A stretch of 64,000 nt of DNA from an uncultured Hyphomicrobiales bacterium. Its GTDB lineage: Bacteria; Pseudomonadota; Alphaproteobacteria; Micropepsales; Micropepsaceae. The translations under genes were made by a program, and so were the position numbers. Below, piece by piece: positions 16,265 to 39,338 of this stretch. Numbering within the stretch: position 1 is the first letter of the stretch; every line of letters starts with the position of its first letter. The stretch lies in the NCBI GenBank assembly GCA_966211925.1, contig CBIHOI010000006.1, positions 8,313-72,312 of the forward strand, written 5' to 3'. The notes under the pieces are model-generated. The model saw only the letters and a program-made list of their open reading frames with translations. It was not told the DNA's origin and searched no databases.

Positions 16265-16344
16265 TTCTTTGGGGAACTTATGCTGCGATTGCGTTCATTG
16301 GCCGATATTGCTTAAATCCCGGCGCGCAGGACTTGGGAACTCTG

Positions 16345-16809: not shown

Positions 16810-16922
16810 AAAATCCGTTTCGCCGCACACTGGCCCCGCGATTAACCTCAGCGTCCTTTTTCTGGCACAAAAGGTTGCCCGGTGAGGCTGGGCAGGGTGA
16901 AATGCCGCCGGGCAAGGGCGAC

Positions 16923-22991: not shown

Positions 22992-23045
22992 GGGCGTGGC
23001 GAATTCATAAAGGGATTACAGGGGCTTGGAAAGGGATGCGCGGGA

Positions 23046-24374
23046 TTACTTTGAGGCAAATTGGGCATCCACGGCGTCGGCAATACCGTCCGCCACCCGC
23101 CCCCGCCAGGTGTCGGAATTCATCTGGGCGGCGTCGTGGGCGTTGGACAGGTAGCCCAGCTCGATCAGCACGGCGGGCACGTCCGGGGCGGTCAGGACCG
23201 CCAGGCTGGCGCTCCTGTGGGGGCTGCGGGCCAGGATATCGGTGACAGGGGCCAGGCTGGACAGGGCCGAGGTGGCGAAGCGGGAGGACTTGTTGATGGT
23301 GTCGCGCTGGGCCAGGTCGATCAGAATGGGCGCCACCGGACTGTTCCCCGACAGGTCCACGCCGGCGATGACGTCAGACTGGTTTTCACGCCGGGCCAGG
23401 GCCGCCGCCTCACGGTCGGAGCGACCGTCATTGAGGGTGTAGATCGACAGCCCCGTCACGCTGGGATCGGGATTGGAGTCGGCATGCAGGGCGATGAACA
23501 GATCGGCCTTGTCGGCACGCGCGATGGCGACGCGCTGGCGCAGCGGAATGAACGTGTCGTCGGCGCGGGTCATGAACACGGTGTAACCGCGCGACTGGAG
23601 CTCGCGGCGCAGCTTCAGGCCTTCGGCCAGCGCCAGGTCCTTTTCCATCAGCCCGTTGACGCCGACCGTGCCGGAATCCAGGCCGCCATGGCCGGGGTCG
23701 ATCACGATGATCTTCTTGCCACCGCCCCGGGCGGGTGGCGACTGCTGGGCCGCGATCATGGCGGCGAGTTTCTCCGCATCGCTCTCGCGTTTCTTGAGGT
23801 CGGCGGGCCAGCCTGCCAGTGCGTCGAACTTGGCGCGGTTGGTGGGGAAAAGATCGATGACCACCCGGTAGCCGAAGCCCGCGGCAGGCGGGATCACCAG
23901 TGCGTCCGCCACGGTGACCGGCTGGTTCAGGTCGATCACCATGCGAGAATTGCCCGTGCGGAACAGGCCATAGCGATAGGACTTTACCGGGCCGAAGCCG
24001 GACGGCTTTGGCGGCGCGCCCAGGCGCCAGGCCACCTGCGGCATGTCGATCACCACACGGTCGGGATTGGACAGCGCAAAGGCTCGCAGGTTCACCGGAT
24101 CAGACAGTTCGATAACCAGGCGGGTGCGATCTTCATGTTCCCCGATGCGCGCGCTCATCACGATGGGAAGCGGGCCATTGGGTTTTGCGCCAACGGTCGG
24201 TCCTGCGACCGGCTGCGGCACCGGCTTGGGCGGCGCGACGGGAAGGTTCGATCCGTCCTGCTGGTGCAGCAGCCGGCTGATGGCGTCGTCGCCCCCCTTC
24301 CCCTCATTTTGGGCCAGCAGGACACCCGGCACCAGCACGGCGGCGGCGAACAGCAGGAGGACCAAAGGGCGCAA
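23046..24374 (-). CDS. amiC: N-acetylmuramoyl-L-alanine amidase with AMIN domain
   Basis: Signal peptide, RVVIDMP AMIN repeats, IDPGHGG, ALHAD, LIELGY; TTG start. Confidence 0.92.
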   Translation of the reverse strand: MRPLVLLLFAAAVLVPGVLLAQNEGKGGDDAISRLLHQQDGSNLPVAPPKPVPQPVAGPTVGAKPNGPLPIVMSARIGEHEDRTRLVIELSDPVNLRAFALSNPDRVVIDMPQVAWRLGAPPKPSGFGPVKSYRYGLFRTGNSRMVIDLNQPVTVADALVIPPAAGFGYRVVIDLFPTNRAKFDALAGWPADLKKRESDAEKLAAMIAAQQSPPARGGGKKIIVIDPGHGGLDSGTVGVNGLMEKDLALAEGLKLRRELQSRGYTVFMTRADDTFIPLRQRVAIARADKADLFIALHADSNPDPSVTGLSIYTLNDGRSDREAAALARRENQSDVIAGVDLSGNSPVAPILIDLAQRDTINKSSRFATSALSSLAPVTDILARSPHRSASLAVLTAPDVPAVLIELGYLSNAHDAAQMNSDTWRGRVADGIADAVDAQFASK

Positions 24375-24465
24375 GAAAGCTCCGAATCTGTGCCCTGCAC
24401 ATTAGCATGGCGATTTGTTTCACCGGCCCGCTTTTGCTAGGCTTGCAACCCAAGGGAATGGGTCC

Positions 24466-25128
24466 ATGTTTCTGGAAATACAAGATTTTTTAACCCCGGC
24501 GGAAGTGGCCCGGCTGGTGGAACTTGCCGGCAAGCTGCACTTTGTCGATGGGCGTATTTCCAACCCGGCCAACATCGCCAAGAACAACCTGCAGGCCGAC
24601 CATGCCGATCCGGGGTATGCGGAGTCTTCGGCGCTGGTGGCCGGCGCCTTTGCGCGGTCGGAGGCGTTCCGCGACTTCGCCTATCCCGCCCACGTCGCCC
24701 CGCCTTTGCTGGCGCGCTATGAGGTGGGCATGACCTATGGCGCGCATGCCGACACCGCGCACATGCGCTTCGGCAACGTCATGAGGCGATCTGACCTGTC
24801 GGCGACGGTTTGGCTGTTGCCGCCCGCCAGCTATGACGGCGGCGAACTGGTGGTGCATCTGGGCACCCAGCCGGTGGTCATTAAGGGGCAGCCCGGCAGC
24901 GTGATCGTCTATCCCTCGACGCAGTTGCATGAAGTGACCGCCGTGCGGCGCGGCACGCGCCTGGTGTCGATCACCTTCATCGAGAGCATGATCCCGGAGG
25001 AACATCTGCGCACCCAGCTGTATGATCTCAGCGAAGTGGCCGCACTGGAGGGCCTCAACATGCGCTGGGAAAACCGCGTCCGCCTGGATGCCGTACGCAA
25101 CAATCTCTTACGCTTGTGGAGCCGTTGA
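24466..25128 (+). CDS. PKHD-type 2OG-Fe(II) hydroxylase (PiuC/YbiX-like)
   Basis: DGRIS, YGAHAD (HxD), RSDLSATVWL, YDGGEL, VYPS..LHEVT.V..G.R; start re-called to 24466. Confidence 0.9.
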   Translation: MFLEIQDFLTPAEVARLVELAGKLHFVDGRISNPANIAKNNLQADHADPGYAESSALVAGAFARSEAFRDFAYPAHVAPPLLARYEVGMTYGAHADTAHMRFGNVMRRSDLSATVWLLPPASYDGGELVVHLGTQPVVIKGQPGSVIVYPSTQLHEVTAVRRGTRLVSITFIESMIPEEHLRTQLYDLSEVAALEGLNMRWENRVRLDAVRNNLLRLWSR

Positions 25129-25664
25129 TGAACAGGACGATGATGATCGCCGCCTTGGCCCTGCTGGCCGCACCGGCGGCGGCGCAGGATGGCATCCGGG
25201 CGCAGCTCGGCAGCTGCCTGGCCATTCCCGGCGTGCTGCAGCGGCTGGCTTGTTACGACAGCGTCGCCAAGGGCAATGGCATCACCACGGCGGCACGCGC
25301 GCCCGTGGCGGCAGCGCCAATGGCGCCGATGCCGCCCCGCACGGCGCTGAACGCGCCGCCGGCGCCCAGGGCCGCCAGCGCAACGGAAGGTTTTGGCGCC
25401 GAACGCCTGCCGCAGGCACAGGCCGCGCGCCGGGCGGTGGAAGAAATCACCTCCCCCATCACCGACATCACCTATTCGATAACGGGCAAGTTCACCGTCA
25501 CCCTGGCCAATGGCCAGGTCTGGCGGCAGAAGGAAGGGGATGTCGCCGCGAAATTCTACCGCAAGTCCGACCAGACGGCGACGATCTCGCGTGGCACCTT
25601 GGGCAGCTACAACATGGTGATCAACGGTTCGGGTGCCTATTACAAGGTTTCGCGCGTCCGCTGA
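25128..25664 (+). CDS. Exported hypothetical protein
   Basis: Signal peptide (APAAAQ), C-x11-C (RLACYD), Ala/Pro linker, beta-rich C-terminus (TLANGQVWRQ); ATG overlaps upstream TGA. Confidence 0.8.
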   Translation: MNRTMMIAALALLAAPAAAQDGIRAQLGSCLAIPGVLQRLACYDSVAKGNGITTAARAPVAAAPMAPMPPRTALNAPPAPRAASATEGFGAERLPQAQAARRAVEEITSPITDITYSITGKFTVTLANGQVWRQKEGDVAAKFYRKSDQTATISRGTLGSYNMVINGSGAYYKVSRVR

Positions 25665-25670
25665 CGGCCC

Positions 25671-27242
25671 ATGGAGAGCATGATTTCGATTCCGCAGAAG
25701 CTTGAGCGCATTGATGATGCGCTGCGCGCCAGCGCGCCGGAAGTCCTGGACCTCACCGCGGACTTCGTGACGGAATATCCCGACAACATCGATGGCTGGA
25801 TTTTTCGCGGCCGGGCCCTGCAGCTCACGTCGGAATTCGCCGCCATGCTGGACGCCGCCCAGCGGACACAGGTGCTGGATCCGGCGAACCCACTGGGGCA
25901 GCTTCTGATGGTGCAGGCGCTGCTGGCCAATGGCCGCGCCATGGAAGCGTTCGAGGCCGCCAAGCTTCTGGAAGCGCAAAGGAAGTTCGACGCCGCGATC
26001 CTGGGACAGGTGGGGAATTTCTATGCCCAGACCAACCGCCATGCCGAGGCCGCGCGCTGCTATGAGCGGGTCAAGGTGCTGCTGCCCGGTGACGCGAGCA
26101 CCATCTACAGCCTTGCCAGCGCCTATGTCGCGATGGGGCAGCTAGACAAGGCCGAGCAGCTCTTCGACGCGCTGCTGCGCAAGTCGCCGCACGAATATGA
26201 CGCCTACTACAATCGCGCGACCTTGCGAAAACAGACGGCGCAGAGCAATCACGTCGCCGAAATGGAAAGGGTGCTCGCCCAGCCGATGCGCAAGGAAAGC
26301 GGCGAGCAGACGCTCTGCTATTCGCTGGCCAAGGAACTGGAGGACATGAAGGACTGGAAGCGGTCCTTCCAGTATCTGCGGCGCGGCGCGGACGCCCACC
26401 GGCGCTATTTCCCTTATGACCGGCAATATGAGCTGGGCACTCTGGATACCATCGCGAAGATCTTCGACGGGGATTTCTTTCGCCGCCCCAACCACGGCTT
26501 TGCGGCCGGCAAGCCGATCTTCGTGCTAGGCATGCCGCGCAGCGGCACCACCCTGGTCGATCGCATCCTGTCATCCCACAGCCAGGTGGAAAGCGCCGGT
26601 GAATCCAGCGAGTTCGCCGCCAGCATCCTGCGTGCCTGTGGCGGCCAGGACGGTCGCGGCAACATTGCCTATGAACAGACACGCACCCTGGATTTCGCTG
26701 CGCTGGGACAGGATTATTGCAACACCATGGCAGGCCTGCTGCCGGGCGTGCCCCATGCGCTGGACAAGACGCCGAGCAATTTCTACGTGATCGGGCTGAT
26801 CGCCGCGTCGCTGCCCAATGCACCGATCATCCATTTGCGGCGCAACCCGGTGGCGAACTGTTATGCCGTCTACAAGACGCTGTTCCGCTCCGGCTACAAT
26901 TTTTCCTACAATCTGGAAGAGATGGGCGAATATTATCTGGGTTACCTGAAGCTGATGGCGCACTGGCGCAAGGTGCTGCCCGGCCGCTTCCTGGACGTGG
27001 ATTATGAAGCGCTGGTCGCCAACCAGGAGGAAGAAAGCCGCCGCATCATCGCCTGGTGCGGGCTGGACTGGGAAGACGCGGTGCTGTCCTTCGAAAAGAA
27101 TGCCAGCCCCAGCCTGACCGCCAGCGCCGCACAGGTGCGCCAGCCCATCTATCGCACCTCGCTGGAACAGTGGCGCAATTACGAAGAAGAGCTACAGCCC
27201 CTCATCCGCGTCCTGCGTGATGGTGGCGCGGAAATCGACTAG
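25671..27242 (+). CDS. TPR-repeat sulfotransferase (ST1)
   Basis: About 5 TPR-like repeats, FVLGMPRSGTTLVDRIL, DKTPSN, W..YEEEL.PL. Confidence 0.9.
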   Translation: MESMISIPQKLERIDDALRASAPEVLDLTADFVTEYPDNIDGWIFRGRALQLTSEFAAMLDAAQRTQVLDPANPLGQLLMVQALLANGRAMEAFEAAKLLEAQRKFDAAILGQVGNFYAQTNRHAEAARCYERVKVLLPGDASTIYSLASAYVAMGQLDKAEQLFDALLRKSPHEYDAYYNRATLRKQTAQSNHVAEMERVLAQPMRKESGEQTLCYSLAKELEDMKDWKRSFQYLRRGADAHRRYFPYDRQYELGTLDTIAKIFDGDFFRRPNHGFAAGKPIFVLGMPRSGTTLVDRILSSHSQVESAGESSEFAASILRACGGQDGRGNIAYEQTRTLDFAALGQDYCNTMAGLLPGVPHALDKTPSNFYVIGLIAASLPNAPIIHLRRNPVANCYAVYKTLFRSGYNFSYNLEEMGEYYLGYLKLMAHWRKVLPGRFLDVDYEALVANQEEESRRIIAWCGLDWEDAVLSFEKNASPSLTASAAQVRQPIYRTSLEQWRNYEEELQPLIRVLRDGGAEID

Positions 27243-27245
27243 CGG

Positions 27246-28883
27246 TCAGTTCTCGCCGTAGCCGAAACGCCGAGCCCAGGGCGACAGCAGCGGCACAATG
27301 GCGTGCAGCTGCTGGGCATAAGCGCGCCAGCGGCCCACGCCTTCCCGGGTGAGTCCCTTGGACAATTGCGGGGCGCTGAGAGAGGCGATCTGGCGCTGGG
27401 CGACCCGTGCCGCGAAATCGCGAAGATTGTCATCCCATTGCAGGCCGATAAATGCGCAGACCGTCTTGGTCTGTGTCTCGAAATCCTCGACCAGCGCTTC
27501 ATGGCGAACCAGCAGCGCATTGAGCGGCAGGTTGTCCAGCGACCAGGCGCCGATGGTCATGGTGACATCGTACAGCCGGGCAGCGCTTTCCAGGTCCAGG
27601 AAGGCATAGGTGACCGCACCGACATCGAGGTGACGGCGAAAACAGCTGAACACCACGTCGCGCGGATCGCGCACGGCAAACAGGATGCGGGCACCGGGGA
27701 AAAGTCGCGCGATCAGCGGCAGCTTGGCGGTGTGCAGCGGCTGCTTGTCGATGAAGACCTTGTCCGCCACGTCGCACCCCTTGGCGGCCACGCCTTGCCA
27801 ATAAGCCTCGCGCAGCGCGTCGAGCTCCTGCTGGCTTGCCGCGGCCAGCTTCGCCAGGCCTTCAGGGCTCATCAGGTATGTTGCGGCAGCTTCGCCCAGC
27901 AGATCGGTTTCTTCCAGGGTCGTCACGTCGGGATGGGATGCCAGCACCTGCTCCAGCAAGGTGGTGCCTGACCGCATGAATCCCAGCAGGAACACATGCT
28001 GGCGTGCCGGCGCGGGCACGGCATCCGGCGCGCTGGGCTGAGCGGCGGGCTGCGCCGCCAAGGCATCTGCGAGGCGGCGCAAATTCGTGTAGGCCTCCTG
28101 CGACCGGGCGCGCTTGGCCTGGTGGATTTCCTGTAGCAGCGCATTTTCCCGCGCATAGGCCTCGAAGGCGTCGCCGGTGCGATCCTGGGCATCCAGCGCG
28201 TCACCCAGAACACCGAAGGCAATGGCTTTGGTCAGCACCGTGGTGGCAGGCGCTTGCGTCAGCGGCCGTGCCAATGTCTCGGCGCCCTGGGGCGCTCCTT
28301 CCGCCAGGTCCGCCATCGCCAGGGCGATGGTGGCGGTGGCCTCGCCGGGCACCAGCGCAAGCGCCTTGGCGGCTGCCGCGCGGGCCGCTGGATAATCCTG
28401 CAGCCGGACCGAGACCGTGGCCAGCCCGGCATGGGCCTGGGCATGGCGGGGGTCCATCAGGACCGTCTTCTGATAGGCCAGGCGCGCGGCGGGATAATCG
28501 CGCAGGGCTTCGTATGTCCAGCCAAAGAGATAGTGCGTCGTCACCATGTCGGGCGCCAGCGCGACGGAGGCTTCCAGGATCTTCAGCCCACCCTGGGGCT
28601 CGCCCATCATGCCCATGATCCCGGCGATACTGTTCAGGATCATGGGATCGGTTTCGTCCAGAGTCCGGGCGTGATGGAACAGGCGCAGGGATTCCTGCAG
28701 CTCGCCGGCATGCTGCAGCCACAGCGCTTCCACCTTGATCAGAAAGGGATGCTCCAGACCGTCATCCAGCGCCGCTCGCGCGATGCGGCGTGCGCCGGGC
28801 AAGTCGCCGCGGCGCATGACGGCGGTTGCCTGCTGCACCGCCTGGGCGGTCTTGCGATCCTGCTCGTCCAGGGTCGTGTCCAT
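27246..28883 (-). CDS. TPR-repeat sulfotransferase (ST2)
   Basis: TPR repeats, FLLGFMRSGTTLLEQVL, DKQPLH, RDPRDVVFS; start 28883 (RBS AGGAAG) or 28901. Confidence 0.9.
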   Translation of the reverse strand: MDTTLDEQDRKTAQAVQQATAVMRRGDLPGARRIARAALDDGLEHPFLIKVEALWLQHAGELQESLRLFHHARTLDETDPMILNSIAGIMGMMGEPQGGLKILEASVALAPDMVTTHYLFGWTYEALRDYPAARLAYQKTVLMDPRHAQAHAGLATVSVRLQDYPAARAAAAKALALVPGEATATIALAMADLAEGAPQGAETLARPLTQAPATTVLTKAIAFGVLGDALDAQDRTGDAFEAYARENALLQEIHQAKRARSQEAYTNLRRLADALAAQPAAQPSAPDAVPAPARQHVFLLGFMRSGTTLLEQVLASHPDVTTLEETDLLGEAAATYLMSPEGLAKLAAASQQELDALREAYWQGVAAKGCDVADKVFIDKQPLHTAKLPLIARLFPGARILFAVRDPRDVVFSCFRRHLDVGAVTYAFLDLESAARLYDVTMTIGAWSLDNLPLNALLVRHEALVEDFETQTKTVCAFIGLQWDDNLRDFAARVAQRQIASLSAPQLSKGLTREGVGRWRAYAQQLHAIVPLLSPWARRFGYGEN

Positions 28884-28932
28884 GGGTCTTCCTATCGCCA
28901 TCCGGCGGAGGCCGCCAGCTTTTCAAATGCTG

Positions 28933-28964
28933 AAAAGCAAAACGGCGGCCTTTTGGGCCGCCGC
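28933..28964 (-). terminator. Intrinsic terminator after the TonB-dependent receptor
   Basis: CGGCGGCC-caaaa-GGCCGCCG-TTTTGCTTTT on the minus strand. Confidence 0.75.
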
Positions 28965-28986
28965 TCGCTCAGAGAAAGTAGGTCGA

Positions 28987-31900
28987 TTACAGCTTGATGG
29001 CCGCCGACACGAAGGCATAACGGCCCAGCGGGTCGTACACGCCCGGGAAGGTATTGCCGTTGAGCGGACCGGTCGGGCCGCCAACCACGCCGCCCGAGGC
29101 GATGAGCGGCGGATCCTTGTCGAACAGGTTGTTGATGCCGGCCGTGAAGGTCAGGGTCGGGGTCGGCGACCAGTTTCCAGCCAGGTCGAAGTAGCTGAAG
29201 TCCGGGATGTGGCCGCCCGCGATGACCGGCTGCAACGGCGCAAAGCCGGCATTCGGCGCATAACCGCTGCGCTGCAGGAAGGGGTTCGTCACGTTGCCGG
29301 CAAAGCCGACGCCGCTCAGATAACGCCAGTCCAGCGACAGCGAGAAGTCCCACGGGCTTTCCCAGGTCGCACGCAGCTTGTGGCGATACTCGGGGTTCGG
29401 CGAACCGCAAGCCTGGCCATAGAGGCCGTTGCAATCATAGCTGGTGTACACAGTCGCGCCCGCCGGAGCCGGTGCGCCTGCAATACAGGAGCTAACCTTT
29501 GCACCCGCCAGCGCCTGGCAGGCACCGGTATAGGGCTGGGTCGAGTAGTCGGTCAGCCATGTGGCGACATAGTTGAACGACATGCCACCGGCATTGTTCA
29601 GGCCCAGATCGTCGAACGAAAAGTTGTAGTTGGATTCAAAGTCGACGCCGCTGGTCTTCTGGTAGCCGGTGTTGACGTTGAGCTGGCTCACATAGCCGTT
29701 GGGCTGGGTGAACAGCAGGCCGTTGGCGTCACGATGGACCAGCGGGCACAGCGCCTGGTTGCCGTTCAAGCAACCGTTGAGCGCGATGCTGGGGTCGATG
29801 GTGCCGATCTGGTTGTTCACCTTGATGTTGAAATAGTCGATGGTCATCGAGAAGTTGCTGATCCATTCCGTCGGCGTGATCACGATGCCGGCGGTGTAGG
29901 TATCGGCCTTTTCGGGCTTCAGGGCCGTGCTGCCGCCCTGCAGGACGTTACACTGCGAAGCCGGGCAGTTGAGCGTGTTGCCATAGCGGGCGGCCGGGAG
30001 GCCGGTGTTCAAACAGGCCGCCTGGCTCGCGGACGGGGTCGTGCCGCCGCAAGGATCGTTGAAGCTGCCCAGCAGCACGCTCTGCGGGGTGTACAGTTCC
30101 ACCACGTTGGGCGCGCGCGCCGCATGGTTGTAGCTGGCGCGCAGGCGGAACAGGTCGATCGGCTGCCAGTCCGTCTTCACCATCCAGGTGTTGGTGTCGC
30201 CCGCCGTGCTGTAGCTGGAGAAGCGATAGGCGGCGTCGAAGTTCAGGCTCTGGACGAGCGGCATATTCTCCGCGATCGGAATACGCACTTCGCCGAAACC
30301 TTCGCGAACGTCGAAGCCCGACTTGGGCTGGCCGACATTGGCGCCGCCGGCGCCGTACAGATCGTTGTTCTGGTCGGCCGTCGAGGTGGTGAGCGCCAGA
30401 TATTCCGAGCGATATTCCGCGCCCAGCGAGAAGGAGACCGGCTGCGAGGACCAGGGGGACTTGACGCCATAGGCGCCAAGGTCGCCGGTGACCGCACCGG
30501 TGATGACATTTTCCTCGGTGAAACCGGCCTGCTGGCCGTGGGTGAAGATGTAACCCAGCATCTTCGGCGTAAAGCCGCCAACGCCGTGGAAGAGATCCAG
30601 CGGCACGCAATTGGCGGCGTCGTTCGTGCACTTGCCGGTGACCGGGTCGACGTTCAGGGCGTTCTGCACTTTCGACTTGGAGAAGTCGTTGCTGTAGGTC
30701 TGGTTGAACAGCGACTTGGAATGCTGCGCCGAGACGTCGTAGCTGAAGCCTTCGCCCAGATCGCCCTTGGCGCCGAACACGAAGCGATAGGTGGTGTGGC
30801 CGAAATCGGTGATGCGCGGCCCGCCTTCGACGTCACGACGGCCGACATAGACAGTCGCGGTCGAGGTGGGCGTATCGCAGAAGTTCGCCACGAAGGACGT
30901 ACCGGCCGCCAGCGGGTTGTTGCAATTGACGGTGTGCGCGCCCGAGAGCGGGCCCGAGCCCAGGAACAGGCCCGAAGGAGCGGCCTGCCAGGTGGTATGA
31001 TCTTCCGTGAACATCAGGCTGGAATACAGGTCAACCATGGGGTTGATCTGGTAGTGGGCGAAGAAGCCGCCAGCCCAGCGCGTGTCGGGGCGCTGAATGC
31101 TGTTGGCAGCGCCGTAGTTGTAATACTGGGTCGAGGCGCCGGTGAACGGCACCAGGGCGCCGCCGGGGTTCATGAACAGATACGTGCCGGCAGACGGGCC
31201 GGTCGTGCCGTAGAACAGGTCATAGTTGGCCGAGCCCGCGCACTTGAAACCGTCATAGGGACGCTGGCCGTTCGCCTGGGTCGGCTTGGTGCGGACGTTG
31301 GAGATGGAGCAGGCCGAATAATCGCGCTTGCTCTGCAGCACCTGGGCCGTCTGGTGATAGCTCAGATAGGTGGTGATATTGCCCTTGCTGTCCGGGGTGT
31401 TGACGCCCAGGACGACAGTGGCGTTGAGCTGCTGACCATCCCAGACCGAGGACGGCGGATCCTTGAAGCCAGCGGCGCTGCCGCCGGCTGCGCTGCGCAG
31501 GCCGGAATAGAAGGAATTGCCGTTGTCGTGCTGGTAGCCGCCATAGGTGACGTCGAACTCGGCACCTTCGAAATCCTTGCGCATGATGAAGTTCACGACG
31601 CCGGCAACGGCGTCCGAACCGTACACGGCCGAGGCGCCGCCGGTCAGAACTTCAACGCGGTCCACAAGGGCGGTGGGGATCTGGTTCAAGTCGGCATACG
31701 GAACGACCGGGTCGCCCGGGGCGAGGCGCAGGCCGTCAACCAGCACCAGGGTGCGGGACGGTCCGAGGCCGCGCAGATCGACGGTCGCGGTGCCGCTCGA
31801 CGCATTGCCGGTGAAGTTCTGCTGGCCGGAGAAGACCGACGGCAGGTTGTTCAAAAGGCTCTCAACGCTGGTCGTGCCCTGGAACTGGGCTTCCTGCTGG

Positions 31901-32079
31901 CCGACCACCGTGATGGGGCTGGCCGAAATCACGCCCTGCTGCGCAATGCGCGAGCCGGTGACGACAACAGTTTCCGTGTTGCCAGCGCTCTGGGCCTGGG
32001 CATAGGCGGAAAATCCAGCGGTGGCGACGGTCGCCGCGCTGAGGAAAAGACCAACTTTCAGGCTTTTTGATTGAAACAC
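28987..32079 (-). CDS. TonB-dependent outer-membrane receptor, 16 Cys
   Basis: GTG start with GAGGGG RBS, signal peptide, TETVVVTGSRI, LRGLGPSRTLVLVDG, ERVEV-like DRVEVLTGGASAVYGSDAVAGVVN, GINNLFDKDPP, YDPLGRY C-terminus. Confidence 0.95.
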   Translation of the reverse strand: MFQSKSLKVGLFLSAATVATAGFSAYAQAQSAGNTETVVVTGSRIAQQGVISASPITVVGQQEAQFQGTTSVESLLNNLPSVFSGQQNFTGNASSGTATVDLRGLGPSRTLVLVDGLRLAPGDPVVPYADLNQIPTALVDRVEVLTGGASAVYGSDAVAGVVNFIMRKDFEGAEFDVTYGGYQHDNGNSFYSGLRSAAGGSAAGFKDPPSSVWDGQQLNATVVLGVNTPDSKGNITTYLSYHQTAQVLQSKRDYSACSISNVRTKPTQANGQRPYDGFKCAGSANYDLFYGTTGPSAGTYLFMNPGGALVPFTGASTQYYNYGAANSIQRPDTRWAGGFFAHYQINPMVDLYSSLMFTEDHTTWQAAPSGLFLGSGPLSGAHTVNCNNPLAAGTSFVANFCDTPTSTATVYVGRRDVEGGPRITDFGHTTYRFVFGAKGDLGEGFSYDVSAQHSKSLFNQTYSNDFSKSKVQNALNVDPVTGKCTNDAANCVPLDLFHGVGGFTPKMLGYIFTHGQQAGFTEENVITGAVTGDLGAYGVKSPWSSQPVSFSLGAEYRSEYLALTTSTADQNNDLYGAGGANVGQPKSGFDVREGFGEVRIPIAENMPLVQSLNFDAAYRFSSYSTAGDTNTWMVKTDWQPIDLFRLRASYNHAARAPNVVELYTPQSVLLGSFNDPCGGTTPSASQAACLNTGLPAARYGNTLNCPASQCNVLQGGSTALKPEKADTYTAGIVITPTEWISNFSMTIDYFNIKVNNQIGTIDPSIALNGCLNGNQALCPLVHRDANGLLFTQPNGYVSQLNVNTGYQKTSGVDFESNYNFSFDDLGLNNAGGMSFNYVATWLTDYSTQPYTGACQALAGAKVSSCIAGAPAPAGATVYTSYDCNGLYGQACGSPNPEYRHKLRATWESPWDFSLSLDWRYLSGVGFAGNVTNPFLQRSGYAPNAGFAPLQPVIAGGHIPDFSYFDLAGNWSPTPTLTFTAGINNLFDKDPPLIASGGVVGGPTGPLNGNTFPGVYDPLGRYAFVSAAIKL

Positions 32080-32462
32080 GAAGGAACCCCTCTGATTTGT
32101 GCCGCGATGCGAAATCGCGAGAAAGCCAAATGGTAAAACCCCGCATTTGGCGCTTGACGTCACGGTAGGGTCACAATGGCTGCAGGGTCAAAGGAATTGC
32201 TACGCCGCAACAAACTCAGGACTGTGTTGTGATATTTAGGTGTCGAATTTGTTGGCAATCGGCTTTTTTATGCGCATTGCCCAATATCTAAGACATAAAA
32301 AACAAGGGAAACCCTAGGCCGAGAAATAATATTTCGCGAGTGCTTGGCGAGTTCCGCCCAAAAATACGCCATTACATTGGGCAAACTGCCTATATGCGCA
32401 CCGCTTCTGGCGCGGACAGTGCCAACACGGATTATCGCGACTGCGAAAAACCGATTCCGGCC

Positions 32463-34280
32463 TCAGAAAGCGCTGGATTCAGCCACCGACTCGAGGCGAT
32501 CCAACCCGCTGATCACGCTGTGTGCTTCTGCGAGCAACGGCTCGATTTCCGCAGCGTTCCGGCGCCATTTCTGCGCATCGGGCGGGGTTATGGTGTGGCG
32601 CGAAACCCGGCCGCGATTGGCAACGGCATGACGCATGGCATCGCCAAAGGGAATGCCCGCGAAATCGCACAGCCGGCGCAATGTGCCTTCGGTGTCGTCC
32701 TTCAGCGCATCGTAATCGACGCTGGTCCAGTCGCTGCGCGGCAAGGCTGCAAGGTCCGTTAGTATGATGTCATTGGTATCACGCCATTGGCGCATGGCGA
32801 TCTTCTGCAGCGGCGCCCCGATCAGCGCGCGCCAGCCCGGTATCAGCAACAGCGACCAGGGCAGTCCCTGCCAGCCGGGAAGTCCCGGATAGGTGACAAA
32901 GCCGCCCGAACGCCAGGCATCCATGATGGCGCTGATGTTGGCGCGCGGCGCGCGGTGCAGGAAGATGAAGCGGGCGTCCGGAAATACGCGTTTCAGGAAC
33001 GGGATGCGCAGCGCGTTCTTGGGTGTCTTCTCCAGAAAGCGGATGGCCTGGGGCATCTGCGCCTGTTCGCGCAGCAGGTTTCCGGCTGCGTCGCGCATGG
33101 TCGCCAGATAGTTCGCACGCAACTGCGCGGCGATATCGGGACGCGCGTCTTCGGCGGTCAGGCGGTTGGACTCGAAGTTGCGTTGCCGCGGGCTGAGAGA
33201 GTCGATGCTTTCCACATGCTGGTGCCCCTCCCCGCCCAGCGTGCTCAACGCCAGATTCTGCGCCAGCATTTCAAAGAGCCATGTGCTGCCTGAGCGCGGC
33301 GCTGCAACAATGAAGACTGGACGCTCGAACTGCGTCGTCTGCACGAAGGCAGGCTGCGGCTTGCGGACAAGCGCCGCAACGGTTTCCGACAATGCGGGGA
33401 TCAGGGGTGATGCGCTGCTTGCAATCTTCAGCGAGGGGGGCAGGAGCGCCACGTTCTGCCGGGCCCAATCGGCCAGTGCGGCGAAATGGGGAAGACCTTC
33501 GGATGGGCCCTTGAGATACCAGATGGTGCGCCATTCGTCGCGCAACTGGTCCGTGAAGGCCAGCAGCGCTTTCATGGCGGAAGGATCGTTGGCAAAGGCG
33601 GCGGCATCGGCCACGATCTCGCCCACTTCCAGGTCAACTTCCGCCGCGGACATCACCGGCGCGCCGACATAACTCTCATAAAGAAGTTCCGGCTGCAGTC
33701 CCGGGCGAAAAGGCACCGGGCGGAATACCGGCGCCGGGCCGCCGAGCGGTGTCGCCATGCGCCAGAATTCGGTGCTGCCATAGGTGTCCATGGTCAGATG
33801 GATTCGCCGGACCGGCGTCTCGTTGACGACCTTGTGCTGGCGGCGATTGTCGAAGGTCCAGGCTTCGCCCGCCGCCATGTGAACCGCGGTACCGTCGCAA
33901 TGAAACTGAACGTCAGGATGGGTGACGATGGGAACATGCACCCGCGTGTGGCGGCGCCAATATTGCTGGTTGTCGACATGCGTGGGCACGCCATCACCTG
34001 GTTCCAGCCGCATCAGCCGGGCGCGACCAATCAGGGTGCGGAACTCGGCCAGAACCTGGCGCAGGTAGGGCGACTGGTCCAGATAAGGTGTCGGCTGGAT
34101 CGGCGGATCGAAGGCGTCAAAGGCGTCGCCGCGTGTCGCGGTCAGCGGCAGGAAACTGTTGCCCTTCAGATCGCTGGGATGCCGGCGCCAGGCGTCATCC
34201 GGAAAGGCGGACACTTCCTGAACCAGCCGCTGCACATCGAAGCGGAACGGAAAACGGTAAAAGGGATGCGAAAGTCTCAT
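32463..34280 (-). CDS. Asp/Asn beta-hydroxylase-sulfotransferase fusion (ST3)
   Basis: Start re-called to MRLSHPF (34280); RARLMRL, HVD, RVHVPI, GEAWTFDN..QHKVVN; then FIVAAPRSGSTWLFE, EKTPKN. Confidence 0.88.
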   Translation of the reverse strand: MRLSHPFYRFPFRFDVQRLVQEVSAFPDDAWRRHPSDLKGNSFLPLTATRGDAFDAFDPPIQPTPYLDQSPYLRQVLAEFRTLIGRARLMRLEPGDGVPTHVDNQQYWRRHTRVHVPIVTHPDVQFHCDGTAVHMAAGEAWTFDNRRQHKVVNETPVRRIHLTMDTYGSTEFWRMATPLGGPAPVFRPVPFRPGLQPELLYESYVGAPVMSAAEVDLEVGEIVADAAAFANDPSAMKALLAFTDQLRDEWRTIWYLKGPSEGLPHFAALADWARQNVALLPPSLKIASSASPLIPALSETVAALVRKPQPAFVQTTQFERPVFIVAAPRSGSTWLFEMLAQNLALSTLGGEGHQHVESIDSLSPRQRNFESNRLTAEDARPDIAAQLRANYLATMRDAAGNLLREQAQMPQAIRFLEKTPKNALRIPFLKRVFPDARFIFLHRAPRANISAIMDAWRSGGFVTYPGLPGWQGLPWSLLLIPGWRALIGAPLQKIAMRQWRDTNDIILTDLAALPRSDWTSVDYDALKDDTEGTLRRLCDFAGIPFGDAMRHAVANRGRVSRHTITPPDAQKWRRNAAEIEPLLAEAHSVISGLDRLESVAESSAF

Positions 34281-34407
34281 CCGGGACTTTGCTATGCGGT
34301 TTCGACGCCAGCATGGTTGCGGCATCGGTGCATGTCCATGGGGACGCATTTTTTGACCGCCGCGTTGCAGCATGTTAAAAGCCGCTGACATCGAGCAAGG
34401 GGTTTTC

Positions 34408-34701
34408 ATGCGCAGTGGGATGATCGTGATTGCTGTTTGTGCCCTCGCCGGCTGGGCAGCGCCCGCCCTGGCCCAGACCACCACCGACGCAACACCGGCC
34501 TCGGCCCAGGCCGCTCCGGCCGCGGAACCCACCGATGACCCGATCGTCTGCAAGCAGCTGAAGGCGGACACCGGCTCGCGCATCGGCGGTCGCCGGATCT
34601 GCGAGAAGCAGAGTGTCTGGCAGCAGCAGGCCCGCGACGCCCGCCGCGAAATCGACAATAGCCAGCAGCGCGGCGGCATGTTCTCCCGGCCTGGAAGCTA
34701 G
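34408..34701 (+). CDS. Small exported protein with C-x6-TGSRI-x5-C motif
   Basis: RBS AGGGG, signal peptide (APALAQ), DPIVCKQLKADTGSRIGGRRICEKQSVW. Confidence 0.8.
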   Translation: MRSGMIVIAVCALAGWAAPALAQTTTDATPASAQAAPAAEPTDDPIVCKQLKADTGSRIGGRRICEKQSVWQQQARDARREIDNSQQRGGMFSRPGS

Positions 34702-34781
34702 TAAGCCTCTGAATTATAGATGTTTTTTCAAAAATCGGCTGGATAGGCCGCGCTGGGCAAGCCTGGCGCGTGATTAATCGC

Positions 34782-35137
34782 TTGTTGAAACCTTGCTGGC
34801 ACCCTACAAAAACTGGGTCCGGCAGTGCTTTTCGCGATTCTCGCAAGCCCGGACACCCCTGACCAGGCCCGGTACGCCCCGCGACCAACGCGAGCACAAA
34901 GGCCGCCAGGATCGCCAATGGGGCCTTCGGGGCCTCTCGAAGTAACAATGACTGTCAAATTTGCGCTCCCCTCCGACGCTGTCCCGGTCCCTGATTTCAG
35001 GCTTGGCTTCAGTAATGAAGTGACCGTTTCGACGGATGGGGTTGCGCGCATGTTTTCAACCCACAATTCGCGCCGCCCCACCCTGCCCGCCGCACGTCGT
35101 GCCGCCGGCAATCCTTGCGCGCGCGCCGGAGACTTTC
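34782..35137 (+). promoter_or_regulatory. Putative rne promoter and ~320 nt structured 5' leader
   Basis: TTGTTG (34782)-N17-TACAAA (34805); nested hairpin 34815-34858; no credible coding frame up to ATG 35138. Confidence 0.5.
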
Positions 35138-37870
35138 ATGACCAAGCGCATGCTGATCGACGCCAACCACCCGGAAGAAACCCGGGTCGTCATTCTCGAC
35201 GGAAATAAGGTCGAGGAATTCGATTTCGAGGCTGCTTCCAAGCGGCCGCTCAAGGGCAACATCTATCTCGCCAAGGTGACGCGCGTTGAGCCGTCCCTGC
35301 AGGCGGCCTTTGTGGAGTATGGCGGCAACCGCCAGGGCTTCCTGGCCTTTGCCGAAATCCATCCCGACTATTACCAGATCCCGGCCAGCGACCGCGCCGC
35401 GCTGATCGCCGAGCAGGAGGCCGAAGCCCGCCGCCGTTCGGAAGACGATATCGAGTCCTTCGAGATCACCGGTCCCAAGGGCCAGGACAGCGAAGAAGAC
35501 GCCGAGGAAGAGGCCGACGAAGAAACCGACGGCGAGGAAACCGCCGAGATGGCGCCGCTGGTGCCTTTGGACGCGGCCCCGGAAGCCCCGGAACCGGCCT
35601 CGGAAACGGAAAGCGACGACGCCTCCCCCGAAGCCGACGAGCATGACGATGTCTTCGTCAATCATGGCGGCGCGCCCGTCCGCGAAGCGGACGAGCACGA
35701 CCATGACGAGGAAGACGAGGGTCCCGCCACCAAATCGGAAGCCTCCGCAGAGGCGCTGACCGACTATCAGGGCGACCCGGACGTCTCGGCGGCCCAGGCG
35801 GCCGAGGAGAATGAAGGCGAGATCGAACCGGTTGGCACCCAGGATGCGGACGACGCCGGGATTGCGGCTGCAGAAACCGCCTCGGAAAATAATGAGGCGG
35901 CCGTGGAAGCCGAGGGCGGGGAAGCCCAAGCGCTGAACGCCGGTCGCCCACCCCAGAAGTGGGTGCGCAAGAAGCATTACAAGATCCAGGAAGTGATCAA
36001 GCGCCGCCAGATCATCCTGGTGCAGGTGGTCAAGGAAGAACGCGGCAACAAGGGCGCCGCCCTCACCACCTATCTTTCGCTGGCCGGCCGCTATTGCGTA
36101 CTGATGCCCAACACCCCGCGCGGCGGCGGCATCTCCCGCAAGATCACCAACGCCGCCGACCGCAAGCGCCTCAAGAGCGCGGCCCAGGGCCTGGAGCTGC
36201 CCGAAGGCATGGGCCTGATCATTCGCACCGCCGGCGAAAATCGCACCCGGCTGGAGATCCGGCGCGACTATGACTATCTGCTGCGCCTGTGGGACACGAT
36301 CCGCGAAAAGACGCTGTCGTCCAACGCCCCGGCCTGCGTCTATGAGGAAGGCGACCTGATCAAGCGCGTCATCCGCGACCTGTATACCAAGGACGTGCAG
36401 GACGTGGTGGTGGAAGGCGAGGAAGGCTATCGCAACGCCAAGGACTTCATGCGGATGCTGATGCCGACGCATGCCAAGTATGTGCATCAGTACAAAGACC
36501 CGGTGCCGCTGTTCCAGCGCATGCATATCGAGACCCAGCTGGACTCGATGTTCTCGCCCACCGTCACCCTGAAGTCGGGCGGCTATATCGTCATCAACCA
36601 GACCGAAGCGCTGGTCGCGATCGACGTGAATTCCGGCCGCGCCACCAAGGAACACTCGATCGAGGAAACCGCGCGCAAGACCAACCTGGAAGCCGCCAGC
36701 GAAGTCGGCCGCCAGCTGCGCCTGCGCGACCTGGCCGGGCTGATCGTTATCGACTTCATCGATATGGAGGAAAGCCGCAACGACCGCGAGGTCGAGAAGC
36801 GCCTGCGCGATGCCGTCAAGGATGACCGCGCCCGGGTACAGATCGGCAAGATCTCGCAGTTCGGCCTGATGGAAATGTCGCGCCAGCGCCTGCGCGCCGG
36901 CGTCATTGCCGGGTCTACCGTCACCTGTCCGCATTGCGCCGGCACCGGCCTGCTGCGTTCCACCGAAAGCTCGGCCCTGCGCGTGCTGCGCGGCCTGGAA
37001 GAGGAAGGCGAGAAGAACCGCGCCGCCGCCGTCAGCGTCAAGATCGACAATGAGGTGGCGCTCTACATTCTCAACCAGAAGCGCCACGAACTGTCGCGCA
37101 TCGAAGCCGAGAACGGCATGGAGATCACGTTTGATCCCAAGCCAGGCATGGCCGGTGGCGCTTTCGAGATCGAGCGCACAAGGACCCGCGAACCGGGCGA
37201 GCGCCCGCGCAGCAATTCCGCTGTCAGCATCGAGGCTGGCTTCGTGCCTTACGAACCTGAGCCGGATTATGTGGAAGAGATCGACGAAGAAGAGGAAGTC
37301 TTCGAGGCCGAAGGCGATACGCCTGCCGAAAGCGAAGAAGCGGCAGAACGTGCGCCGCGCGCGGAAGGCGAACGTTCTGACCGGGGCGGCGAACGCGGCG
37401 ATGGCCGCAAGCGCCGTCGCCGTGGCGGCCGTGGCCGCAACCGCGATCGTGAAGGCCAGCGTCCAGTGGGTGCCGATACCGGTGTCGCGCCTGTAGCCGC
37501 GGAAGCAACCGAAGACCGCGAGGACGGTGACGAAACGGAACTTGCACACGCCCAGCCCGGGCAGCCGCTCGGCGAGAATGGCGAGCCGCGCCGCAAGCGC
37601 CGTCGCCGCCGTGGCCGTCGTGGCGGCCGCGATCGCGCCGATCAACCCGAAGGCACGGAAAATCAGCAGCCCGGCTTTGTCGCGGAAGCCGACCGTTTTG
37701 GCGCGGCCCCGGACGAGATAGACACCACGCCCACCATCGGCGGCAGCCATGCCCCTGGCGCGCCGTCCGCGCCGGTCTGGTCGCTGAAGGACGATGAACT
37801 GGACACCACCCCCAAGGAAGAACCGCCGAAGAAAAAGGGCTGGTGGTCCAAGGCTTTTGGCACCGAATAG
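35138..37870 (+). CDS. rne: Ribonuclease E
   Basis: MTKRMLIDA, GNIYLAKVTRVEPSLQAAFV, QVVKEERGNKGAALTT, IDVNSG, IDFIDM, CPHC, Arg-rich CTD, GWW C-terminus. Confidence 0.96.
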   Translation: MTKRMLIDANHPEETRVVILDGNKVEEFDFEAASKRPLKGNIYLAKVTRVEPSLQAAFVEYGGNRQGFLAFAEIHPDYYQIPASDRAALIAEQEAEARRRSEDDIESFEITGPKGQDSEEDAEEEADEETDGEETAEMAPLVPLDAAPEAPEPASETESDDASPEADEHDDVFVNHGGAPVREADEHDHDEEDEGPATKSEASAEALTDYQGDPDVSAAQAAEENEGEIEPVGTQDADDAGIAAAETASENNEAAVEAEGGEAQALNAGRPPQKWVRKKHYKIQEVIKRRQIILVQVVKEERGNKGAALTTYLSLAGRYCVLMPNTPRGGGISRKITNAADRKRLKSAAQGLELPEGMGLIIRTAGENRTRLEIRRDYDYLLRLWDTIREKTLSSNAPACVYEEGDLIKRVIRDLYTKDVQDVVVEGEEGYRNAKDFMRMLMPTHAKYVHQYKDPVPLFQRMHIETQLDSMFSPTVTLKSGGYIVINQTEALVAIDVNSGRATKEHSIEETARKTNLEAASEVGRQLRLRDLAGLIVIDFIDMEESRNDREVEKRLRDAVKDDRARVQIGKISQFGLMEMSRQRLRAGVIAGSTVTCPHCAGTGLLRSTESSALRVLRGLEEEGEKNRAAAVSVKIDNEVALYILNQKRHELSRIEAENGMEITFDPKPGMAGGAFEIERTRTREPGERPRSNSAVSIEAGFVPYEPEPDYVEEIDEEEEVFEAEGDTPAESEEAAERAPRAEGERSDRGGERGDGRKRRRRGGRGRNRDREGQRPVGADTGVAPVAAEATEDREDGDETELAHAQPGQPLGENGEPRRKRRRRRGRRGGRDRADQPEGTENQQPGFVAEADRFGAAPDEIDTTPTIGGSHAPGAPSAPVWSLKDDELDTTPKEEPPKKKGWWSKAFGTE

Positions 37871-37890
37871 CGGCGCCTTGCATACAAACG

Positions 37891-37922
37891 AAAAGGCCGC
37901 GAGCGATGCTCGCGGCCTTTTT
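37891..37922. terminator. Bidirectional intrinsic terminator
   Basis: AAAAGGCCGCGAGC-gat-GCTCGCGGCCTTTTT between convergent genes. Confidence 0.9.
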
Positions 37923-37952
37923 CATGTCCGCCTGTTCATGTCCGCTTGATGC

Positions 37953-39338
37953 TTACGGGTTGCTGGCAACTTCCGCGGACGCGCCTGCGCCATGGGCGCC
38001 GGGATCGGACAGGCCCACGCAGGCGGTCGTGTCGCAGGCGATCACATTTACGGTGTCGAACGGCGCCGCGCCGGTGCCGCGAAGATCGCCCCGGCGTCCC
38101 AGCCGCCGGCCGCCGGCAGTGTCCAGCACCGCAGAGACCGCTGCCGCCGTGCCGTTGGGTCCGCCGGCGCCGGCCGCCGCGATGGCAACGCCATTGCCAT
38201 CCGTGGCGATCAGCGGTGCCAGGAAGGCGCTGGCCAGGCCACCCTGCCCCGCAGGCGAAGCCGCAAGCTGTACGCCGGTCCCCGCCGCCGTGCGGCCCGC
38301 GCCAAATGGGCCGTTGAGGGTGACCGCGCAGGAAGCAGCCTGGCCGCTGGCGTCCACCGCCGCAAAGCCGGTCGAGCCCAGGTCATGGGGCAAGGCGGTG
38401 ACACCGAAGCTGGTCAGCGACTGGCGCACGGCGCCCGACACGTCGCGGCCATTTGAACGTGAAAGATTGTCCAGCAGCGATGCGGTGAACACACCCGCGC
38501 CCGTTCGCGAAGCCGGCAGCCAGGTGGTGAGATTGCCCATGGCGCGCGAACGCGCCGCGCCGTTCGTGCTTCTGACCGCCGCCAGTTCATTGAGATCGAC
38601 CGCGCCGCCCTGGGCCGCCGACCAGCTCTCGATGCGGGCTGCGACCAGGCCGCGATAAAAGCCATCGGCGCCGTTGATGCGAATCTCCGAAAGCGTCTGG
38701 GACAGCGCCGTGTTCTTTACTTCGGTGCCGGCCGCGCGGGCCTGCCCGGACTCGTCCAGGAATTCGGCCGCCAGGCCTGCATCCAGACGAATTGCATTCT
38801 GCGCGCCCGCCAGGCGCACGGCCAATGCCTGGGAGATGGGAAAGCCGGTGGCGGCATAGGCTTCGCCAGGCGCCACCACGCGCTGCCAGGGCAGCGCGCC
38901 ATACGCCTTCTGCATGTCGGCGAAACCGCGCACCGCGCCTGGAACCGCATAGGCGCCGCCGCGCGCGGGCGCGCGGGTCAGAAAATCATACTCGGTGACC
39001 TGCCCGCCGGTGTCGCGCACCAGGCAGATGCCACCGGCGCCAAGACCGGCAGCGACCGGATAAGTGGCGCTGAGGGTGAAGAACATCGCGGTGACCGCAT
39101 CCACGGCGCTGCCGGCCGAAGCCAGGGCTGACGCGCCAGCGCGCGCCGCCAACGGTTCGTCGCTCACCGCGATGCCCGCGCGCGCCGGTTCCGACTCGGC
39201 GCTGGAGGTATAGCTTTGAGGCACGTCATCCTCGAGCCCGACCGCGGAGCCGATATGGCTGCCGAGAGACTGTACGGTGGTGCAACCGCCCATCATCAGG
39301 GGAAGGGCGAGCAAGGCAATGAGACGCTTGGACCGCAT
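37953..39338 (-). CDS. Divergent gamma-glutamyltransferase-family lipoprotein
   Basis: Lipobox-like MGGC; GSAVDAV, GLGAGG, VPGAVRG, LPWQRVVAP, GFPIS, VD..G......TLN.PFG. Confidence 0.85.
   Translation of the reverse strand: MRSKRLIALLALPLMMGGCTTVQSLGSHIGSAVGLEDDVPQSYTSSAESEPARAGIAVSDEPLAARAGASALASAGSAVDAVTAMFFTLSATYPVAAGLGAGGICLVRDTGGQVTEYDFLTRAPARGGAYAVPGAVRGFADMQKAYGALPWQRVVAPGEAYAATGFPISQALAVRLAGAQNAIRLDAGLAAEFLDESGQARAAGTEVKNTALSQTLSEIRINGADGFYRGLVAARIESWSAAQGGAVDLNELAAVRSTNGAARSRAMGNLTTWLPASRTGAGVFTASLLDNLSRSNGRDVSGAVRQSLTSFGVTALPHDLGSTGFAAVDASGQAASCAVTLNGPFGAGRTAAGTGVQLAASPAGQGGLASAFLAPLIATDGNGVAIAAAGAGGPNGTAAAVSAVLDTAGGRRLGRRGDLRGTGAAPFDTVNVIACDTTACVGLSDPGAHGAGASAEVASNP

Follow-up and report, generated by a model that had tools for sequence, protein, structure and literature searches.

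A conserved fusion of a 2-oxoglutarate hydroxylase and a sulfotransferase in Micropepsaceae and its possible role in the modification of exported proteins

Described hydroxylase-sulfotransferase systems and the fusion gene

Sulfotransferases fused or linked to bacterial 2-oxoglutarate (2OG) dioxygenases, with TonB-like receptors encoded nearby, were described by Iyer, Abhiman, de Souza and Aravind (2010, NAR 38:5261, PMC2938197), who predicted hydroxylation followed by sulfation of the secreted proteins encoded alongside, a proposal made on computational grounds only. Here we analyse a gene of this kind, at 32463-34280 on the minus strand of a 64,000-nucleotide stretch of DNA (the window) from an uncultured Hyphomicrobiales bacterium of the family Micropepsaceae (GenBank assembly GCA_966211925.1, contig CBIHOI010000006.1, positions 8,313 to 72,312). 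Our analysis shows a genuine, conserved two-enzyme fusion whose catalytic sites are intact and whose product is predicted to be soluble. We propose, as a tentative reading to which we give a little less than an even chance, that its two domains act in tandem, hydroxylating and then O-sulfating a protein before its export.

The fusion shares with the systems of Iyer et al. (2010) the pairing of a 2OG dioxygenase with a P-loop sulfotransferase, TonB-like receptors and tail-collar proteins as neighbours and the logic of hydroxylation followed by sulfation. In the window it is adjoined by a TonB-dependent receptor (TBDR), sulfotransferases with tetratricopeptide repeats (TPR) and a small exported protein, while a tail-collar neighbour is found in the related locus L006 and RTX neighbours in L006, L021 and L022. 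The substrates named in the same part of the 2010 paper are collagen-like or tail-collar proteins, and the helical region and the small Cys-loop protein reported below are not described there. An earlier note on this DNA, made from the sequence alone, had hinted at a modification undescribed in bacteria, and in this it was anticipated, as the computational study of 2010 (PMC2938197) had already put forward both the fusion architecture and the sequence of hydroxylation and sulfation.

What we add is a residue-level case that both domains are probably active, the homology of both halves to unfused neighbouring proteins, a quantified neighbourhood survey and a family of small Cys-loop (lipo)proteins as candidate substrate or partner. 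To our knowledge O-sulfation of a newly installed amino-acid hydroxyl has not been demonstrated in bacteria, and we know of very few cases of bacterial protein sulfation, RaxX/RaxST among them. The family of the fusion comprises hundreds of 50%-identity clusters annotated only as 'sulfotransferase', and in the literature searched we found no functional study of the TonB-receptor-linked enzyme clusters since the 2010 notice. As both enzymes reside in one soluble polypeptide and candidate substrates are encoded next door, a direct in vitro test is feasible.

One polypeptide with two catalytic domains

The fusion is a single open frame of 605 codons plus stop, and neither the ORF listing nor the translation contains a stop or frameshift separating the domains, in agreement with the single polypeptide claimed in the earlier note. 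The maximal ORF reaches upstream to 34679, an extension that overlaps a divergent plus-strand gene. As the Met at 34280 (MRLSHPFY...) is the start of nearly all of 36 aligned homologues, we consider it the best start; public gene calls give a 620-aa form that begins 15 codons further upstream. Pfam assigns PF05118 (Asp_Arg_Hydrox) to residues 70-166 (E 9e-14, 52 bits against a curated cut-off of 22.6) and PF13469 (Sulfotransfer_3) to residues 321-546 (E 4e-30, 106 bits against a cut-off of 27), the latter being the C-terminal 3'-phosphoadenosine-5'-phosphosulfate (PAPS) domain of the earlier note, and the Pfam scan finds no TPR inside the fusion. The pairing of the domains in one frame is far beyond chance, as the best 120 database matches all keep both domains in the same order within about 600-630 aa.

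The family is large and spread widely through Proteobacteria, yet sporadic. An indexed database search returned at least 2,754 relatives, of which the best 120 are named only 'sulfotransferase' or 'hypothetical', and 512 of 1.84 billion 50%-identity representatives reached E<=1e-30 when all of them were searched exhaustively. Seven of 401 evenly sampled Pseudomonadota genomes match at E<=1e-20 and about four, including the window's own, carry the full fusion, i.e., about 1% of those sampled. The relatives with a named source come from Micropepsales, Rhizomicrobium, Dongiaceae, Arenimonas and unclassified Gammaproteobacteria. As the fusion is kept across hundreds of 50%-identity clusters, its conservation fits coupled chemistry. 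About 12 of the best 150 representatives are 940-1090 aa long, so that proteins of this greater length seem to make up a subfamily of some size; two loci (L066:10001-12994 and L084:2162-5158) encode a triple fusion of about 998 aa in which the AspH-like hydroxylase and Sulfotransfer_3 are joined to a C-terminal DUF4915 (PF16261, E 1e-126).

Among the 36 homologues, which are 45-84% identical to the window protein, the hydroxylase residues H101, D103, H149 and R159 are invariant (36/36), and so are the sulfotransferase residues P328, R329, G331, S332, E351, H353, E417-K-T-P-K-N422 and R443; P328-R-S-G-S-T333 and R443...S450, the predicted Arg/Ser motif for the 3'-phosphate, are as a whole invariant or nearly so. 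The HVD...H triad of the N-terminal cupin, read from the sequence in the earlier note, corresponds to H101-V102-D103 and H149, with R159 ten residues beyond the distal His. That note had also allowed that one of the domains might be inactive, an objection that fails because the catalytic residues are intact and invariant at these identities, and both domains look active.

The profile of the 36-homologue alignment was searched against PDB sequences and an AlphaFold2 (AF2) model (mean pLDDT 88.8, confident within domains) was compared with the PDB by Foldseek. For the N-terminal domain the best profile match is L-proline cis-4-hydroxylase (4p7w; residues 13-192, E 3e-12), with the HxD, the distal His and the Arg in register, followed by proline 3-hydroxylase (1e5r). 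By fold the best match is Cpz10 (7v4f; TM-score to target 0.70-0.75), with proline hydroxylases also found and human AspH at 0.57, and the model and its neighbours support a double-stranded beta-helix. The HxD, distal His and Arg align with all three of 4p7w, 1e5r and Cpz10, which, unlike the fusion, are stand-alone enzymes without a sulfotransferase. Their substrates are free proline or, for the caprazamycin beta-hydroxylase Cpz10, a nucleoside intermediate, which is a small molecule (PMC9814697). NCBIfam adds a weak match to TIGR04531, 'nonproteinogenic amino acid hydroxylase'.

Human AspH (5apa, 6yyu) belongs to the same Pfam family, has the same double-stranded beta-helix (Foldseek rmsd 3.0-3.7 over about 162 columns) and likewise carries an Arg ten residues beyond the distal His. 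However, it is only 15-17% identical to the fusion and was missed by the sequence profile, and the fusion lacks a TPR domain ahead of the oxygenase and a membrane anchor and is predicted to be cytoplasmic; a TPR followed by PF05118 is found in a separate neighbour family. Human AspH uses two His only, whereas the fusion has the full HxD...H triad. As the domain is closest to proline hydroxylases by profile and to Cpz10 by fold, with AspH more distant, the Asp/Asn target suggested in the earlier note is not supported.

For the C-terminal domain the best profile matches are the sulfotransferases of CurM (4gbm, E 2e-16) and of the olefin synthase (4gox, E 3e-11), followed by human TPST1 (5wrj, E 2e-10), and Foldseek returned the CurM sulfotransferase and TPST1/2 at TM about 0.5-0.58. 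The PRSGST loop aligns with those of CurM and TPST1, and E351/H353 with the E-L-H of CurM and the GEE of TPST1, residues which we take to serve as the catalytic base in both. The sulfotransferases of CurM and of the olefin synthase sulfate a beta-hydroxyl, and that of CurM uses the sulfate as a leaving group. The fusion could therefore be thought to sulfate for elimination or substitution, producing a dehydro residue, an olefin or a cross-link, and the profile ranking together with the invariant E351-x-H353 would agree with this. Yet the CurM and olefin-synthase domains sit in polyketide synthase (PKS) modules next to a thioesterase and act on acyl substrates bound to an acyl carrier protein (ACP), whereas here there is no PKS, ACP or thioesterase. 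No thioesterase or lyase-like partner recurs in the clusters surveyed below, the fold of TPSTs, whose products are stable sulfate esters, is about equally close (TM 0.53-0.58), and the several further sulfotransferases of the cluster suggest multiple stable sulfations; we consider a leaving-group role quite improbable. TPSTs, of which human TPST1/2 fall by fold and profile in the sulfotransferase clade of the domain and RaxST is a bacterial example, sulfate secretion-bound proteins and peptides but, unlike the fusion, do so on an existing Tyr hydroxyl and without a fused hydroxylase.

The linker that joins the domains at about residues 176-320, described as helical in the earlier note, consists largely of helices in the AF2 model (residues 212-227, 233-261, 263-277 and 293-302), and E202, W250 and G258 within it are invariant in the alignment. 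By hhalign, residues 7-179 match stand-alone AspH-like neighbour proteins of about 210-230 aa (probability 99.3), better than they match the TPR-AspH family, and residues 231-594 match residues 263-608 of the TPR-sulfotransferases, from just past the TPR region to the end (probability 99.6). Given the latter match, the middle region from about residue 231 is an N-terminal helical extension of the sulfotransferase module, and the fusion as a whole consists of a stand-alone hydroxylase and a TPR-less sulfotransferase.

No signal peptide or membrane helix was found in the fusion (maximum 19-residue Kyte-Doolittle mean 1.21), and the protein is predicted to be soluble and cytoplasmic. PAPS can be made by the host, since its genome encodes an adenosine-5'-phosphosulfate (APS) kinase domain within a 651-aa ORF. 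The earlier note had raised a lipid, such as lipid A, as an alternative target, i.e., an LpxO/OlsC-like hydroxylase coupled to a lipid sulfotransferase that yields a sulfated hydroxy-lipid. LpxO belongs to PF05118, which is in line with this idea, but the membrane segments and the lipid context of LpxO and OlsC are both lacking in the fusion, no lipid-synthesis genes are found among neighbour families present in at least 5 of the 58 loci surveyed, and no LpxO or OlsC model is among the NCBIfam matches, leaving the lipid target with a negligible probability.

Neighbouring genes and candidate substrates

As a single-protein search of genome contigs gave 2 loci, metagenome contigs were used for a neighbourhood survey of 58 loci of at least 6 kb (metagenome contigs, assemblies and the window), in which ORFs of at least 70 aa were clustered and representatives annotated; overall, the sampling comprised 401 genomes and about 100 loci. 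The most frequent partners are proteins with TPR and Sulfotransfer_3 (26/58 loci), proteins with TPR and PF05118, mostly abutting the fusion upstream (20/58), and TBDRs (17/58), followed by a 231-aa sulfotransferase-like protein and a 2OG-FeII_Oxy_3 protein (11/58 each), a stand-alone AspH-like protein (8/58) and a TPR protein with 2OG-FeII_Oxy_5 (6/58). The order fusion, TBDR, TPR-sulfotransferase, TPR-sulfotransferase is common to the window and L001, whose fusion is 79% identical. A maximum-likelihood tree of the 58 fusions has loci with the receptor-cluster context in each of its two deep clades and solitary genes in between, which indicates that this context is old and was repeatedly lost. 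No nonribosomal peptide synthetase, PKS, maturase of ribosomally synthesised and post-translationally modified peptides or conserved exporter was found among the recurrent ORF clusters of the 58 loci.

In the window the divergent neighbour of the fusion encodes a small protein in which a signal-peptide-like N-terminus (19-residue Kyte-Doolittle mean 2.04) and an Ala/Pro-rich linker precede a C-terminal domain; this domain begins with the loop C-KQLKAD-TGSRI-GGRRI-C and continues with helices. Using a family hidden Markov model (HMM) seeded from similar ORFs, we found such a protein in 16 distinct loci (L001, L016, L018-20, L046, L062, L068, L077, L080, L081, L085, L089, L091, L093 and the window) across both deep clades of the fusion tree, where it lies no more than 5 kb from the fusion and often abuts it, in three different orientations. 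The 3.0-Mb host genome holds only one strong copy, the one beside the fusion. In the reverse direction, of six database homologues of the small protein chosen only by the length of their contigs, five lie inside hydroxylase/sulfotransferase/TonB-receptor clusters, three with an intact fusion and two with fusion pieces in fragmented assemblies, and the sixth adjoins a TPR-2OG oxygenase. A lipobox marks most members of the family as lipoproteins. Both Cys, and the Gly of TG[ST][RH], are the same in all members, and at the C-terminus most have a tail that is rich in Pro and resembles P-x-G; Pfam and NCBIfam hold no model that matches the family. The AF2 model of the small protein, of low confidence (pLDDT 55), suggests a Cys-closed beta-hairpin followed by helices.

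We also considered that the small protein is always linked to these enzymes, which we reject, as 19 of 20 sampled copies of its wider superfamily have no such neighbours; only a subfamily is cluster-linked. Four weaker relatives in the host genome (C61:11004-11705, C1:49650-50690, C167:1838-2365) carry a different loop, C-R-x-P-Q-x-L-P-G-S-R-L ... C-x-T-N-x-x-W, and hint that small exported proteins with a Cys loop form a wider, unnamed superfamily in Alphaproteobacteria.

Other lineages have other exported neighbours. A DUF4347+RTX protein of 1200-1450 aa lies beside the fusion in all of L006, L021 and L022, which belong to one clade, with a TPR-sulfotransferase also in L006 and L021; L006 additionally has three phage tail-collar genes and a 1954-aa cadherin/Big_9 protein, and in L024 and L025 a right-handed beta-helix protein adjoins the fusion. 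What these neighbours have in common across clades is that they leave the cytoplasm, in agreement with the prediction of Iyer et al. (2010).

Based on these data we propose the following sequence of events. The N-terminal cupin would bind Fe(II) via H101, D103 and H149 and 2-oxoglutarate via R159, and would hydroxylate an amino-acid residue at an unactivated carbon of its side chain. In the C-terminal domain PAPS would be held by the PRSGST loop and R443, and the E351/H353 pair would transfer the sulfate onto the new hydroxyl to form an O-sulfated hydroxy-amino acid, the conserved helical region holding the two catalytic domains together; in unfused paralogues a putative substrate-binding TPR domain occupies the position equivalent to this region. 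Likely substrates would be export-bound polypeptides modified before they leave the cytoplasm, the best candidate here being the small Cys-loop protein, perhaps working with the adjacent TBDR, and giant RTX, tail-collar or beta-helix proteins being candidates in other lineages. Of the sequential chemistry suggested in the earlier note, the coupling is fitted by a conserved and active-looking fusion and the target residue is unsupported; we infer that both domains act on a single atom of one substrate, which step comes first and what the substrate is. Coupling on one hydroxyl is the most economical view given the collinear fusion, the unfused pairs encoded side by side and the kinship of the C-terminal domain with hydroxyl-acting sulfotransferases, and the TPR-fused partners, the lack of scaffold-building genes and the exported-protein neighbours speak for a protein or peptide as the substrate. 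TPR domains are typically protein-binding modules.

It is conceivable that the two domains modify the same target protein at different sites, for instance by sulfating Tyr, Ser or Thr and hydroxylating independently elsewhere. The closeness of human TPST1 and TPST2, which are Tyr O-sulfotransferases, the unequal numbers of unfused hydroxylases and sulfotransferases in the clusters and the Ser/Thr among the nearly invariant residues of the TG[ST][RH] loop would be in keeping with this, but the candidate small protein has no conserved Tyr, and the strictly collinear, conserved fusion and the adjacent unfused domain pairs fit coupled steps; independent sites seem improbable to us.

The adjacent TBDR polypeptide could itself be the substrate, as implied by the receptor-derived peptides that the earlier note proposed to assay. 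Where present, the TBDR usually adjoins the enzymes on the same strand, and that of the window co-diverges with the fusion in its clade, being 72% identical to that of L001, 46% to those of L018-20 and 39% to those of L054/56, while its best paralogue in the genome is 27.6% identical. However, its identity to TBDRs from the largest cluster type is only 25-28%, no higher than to the paralogue, and many fusion loci have no TBDR. The motif TGSRI is common to the N-terminal VVVTGSRI of the TBDR and to the loop of the small protein; as TGSRI is common in TBDRs of these lineages the sharing may be a coincidence, or it could be a shared recognition element. We regard the TBDR as a very improbable substrate.

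Several observations weigh against tandem modification of an exported protein. The solved structures closest to the hydroxylase domain are of enzymes for free proline or a nucleoside intermediate and not for proteins. In about half of the loci surveyed the fusion is solitary, and twelve loci whose flanks extend 5 kb or more to either side have none of the partner families, their sampled neighbours being unrelated housekeeping genes. The wider superfamily of the small protein occurs in 31 of the 401 genomes, mostly apart from hydroxylases and sulfotransferases as described above, and one fusion-bearing genome, G040, has no detectable small protein. Modification before export is unusual for a substrate of the Sec or lipoprotein pathway, the pTM of 0.53 means that the relative placement of the two active sites is not predicted, and our literature search found no experimental study of any member of the fusion family.

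Part of this evidence would suit a small-molecule substrate, i.e., a free amino acid or derivative that is hydroxylated and then sulfated, for example to a hydroxyproline-like O-sulfate, the receptor cluster being only loosely linked or perhaps taking up the product. The profile and fold matches to the proline hydroxylases and Cpz10, the weak TIGR04531 match, the absence of a TPR domain from the fusion and its frequent solitary occurrence all point this way. Against it, no scaffold-building, export or inner-membrane uptake genes recur, the recurrent partners are TPR-fused enzymes and exported proteins, and the protein-acting TPSTs are equally close to the C-terminal domain. We consider a small molecule possible, if on the unlikely side.

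Returning to modification of exported proteins, its most far-reaching form would be a dedicated system, of a kind undescribed in bacteria, that puts O-sulfated hydroxy-amino acids on export-bound proteins with the help of TPR-fused hydroxylases and sulfotransferases, which we judge unlikely. If it exists, its targets here would be the unnamed family of small Cys-loop (lipo)proteins, those in other lineages would be of the RTX, tail-collar or beta-helix kind, and a sulfated small protein could be a ligand-capturing partner of the co-encoded TBDR. In a variant of such a system the sulfate would be a leaving group on the way to a dehydro or cross-linked residue.

Features of the window and of related loci

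The positions of the features are collected in Table 1. The cluster is flanked on both sides by housekeeping genes (20520-24374 and 35036-39338). A terminator scan found no terminator-like hairpin between the fusion and the TBDR, Rfam gave no match in 24000-35200, and a promoter scan did no better than on shuffled sequence.

Table 1. Positions of the fusion gene, its parts and its neighbours in the window, and of RTX/giant protein regions in three related loci
Feature	Position	Strand	Basis or remark
Fusion gene, 605 aa: hydroxylase, helical region, sulfotransferase	32463..34280	-	ORF, Pfam, 36-sequence alignment, AF2
Fe(II)/2OG cupin hydroxylase domain PF05118, residues 1-180	33741..34280	-	
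Predicted Fe ligand H101	33978-33980	-	invariance, 4p7w alignment
Predicted Fe ligand D103	33972-33974	-	invariance, 4p7w alignment
Predicted Fe ligand H149	33834-33836	-	invariance, 4p7w alignment
Predicted 2OG-binding R159	33804-33806	-	invariance, 4p7w alignment
Conserved, mostly helical middle region, residues 181-320	33321..33740	-	AF2 helices, invariant residues, hhalign
PAPS-type sulfotransferase domain PF13469, residues 321-605	32466..33320	-	Pfam, invariant columns, profile alignment
Predicted 5'-phosphosulfate loop P328-T333	33282-33299	-	
E351-G-H353	33222-33230	-	EKTPKN = residues 417-422
R443	32952-32954	-	
Small exported protein, about 97 aa from MRSGMIVIAV, divergent from fusion	34408..34701	+	family HMM, signal-peptide-like N-terminus
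TBDR, about 1030-1058 aa, directly downstream of fusion, same strand, past 300-bp AT-rich spacer	28987..32163	-	Pfam Plug and beta-barrel
Terminator-like hairpin, 11 pairs and T run, just past TBDR stop	28940..28966	-	consensus match only
TPR + Sulfotransfer_3 protein, 551 aa	27246..28901	-	Pfam
TPR + Sulfotransfer_3 protein, 523 aa	25671..27242	+	Pfam
Exported protein, 182 aa, signal-peptide-like N-terminus	25116..25664	+	no family match
PKHD-type Fe(II)/2OG hydroxylase, YbiX/PiuC family	24415..25128	+	Pfam 2OG-FeII_Oxy_3; NCBIfam NF003974, 180 bits against cut-off 143
AmiC-type amidase with AMIN domain	23046-24374	-	
Class A penicillin-binding protein	20520-22991	-	
RNase E-like ORF, 944 aa	35036-37870	+	recognised by eye from sequence
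Gamma-glutamyltranspeptidase	37953-39338	-	
DUF4347+RTX/giant protein regions	L006:1884-9846 and 13858-18015; L021:1700-6058; L022:2984-6583		

The PKHD hydroxylase lies 3.9 kb from the TBDR, beyond both TPR-sulfotransferases. As it did not cluster with the 2OG-FeII_Oxy_3 genes of other loci, and the 182-aa exported ORF is not conserved in them, membership of these two genes in the cluster is uncertain and they were not counted as its parts. The YbiX/PiuC family shows an unexplained pairing with TonB-dependent receptors (fiu-ybiX, piuA-piuC).

Six loci (L037, L040, L041, L044, L045 and L122, the latter from genome G040) form one clade in which the otherwise solitary fusion has a conserved synteny: a PALP+CBS protein, a NUDIX hydrolase that abuts the fusion upstream, the fusion and a pyridine-nucleotide disulfide oxidoreductase. 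In L098 (4875-6805) and L099 (5874-7804) a gene of the MbnB/TglH/ChrH family (DUF692), an HvfC_N gene and an 86-aa ORF adjoin the hydroxylase/sulfotransferase cluster, and these three look like a separate peptide-modification cassette. In a gene list of Pontixanthobacter, sulfotransferase and aspartyl beta-hydroxylase genes stand between lasso-peptide B2, PqqD and asparagine-synthase-like (cyclase) genes (PMC10040529), and in Sphingomonadales the pairing of hydroxylase and sulfotransferase may thus also decorate lasso peptides.

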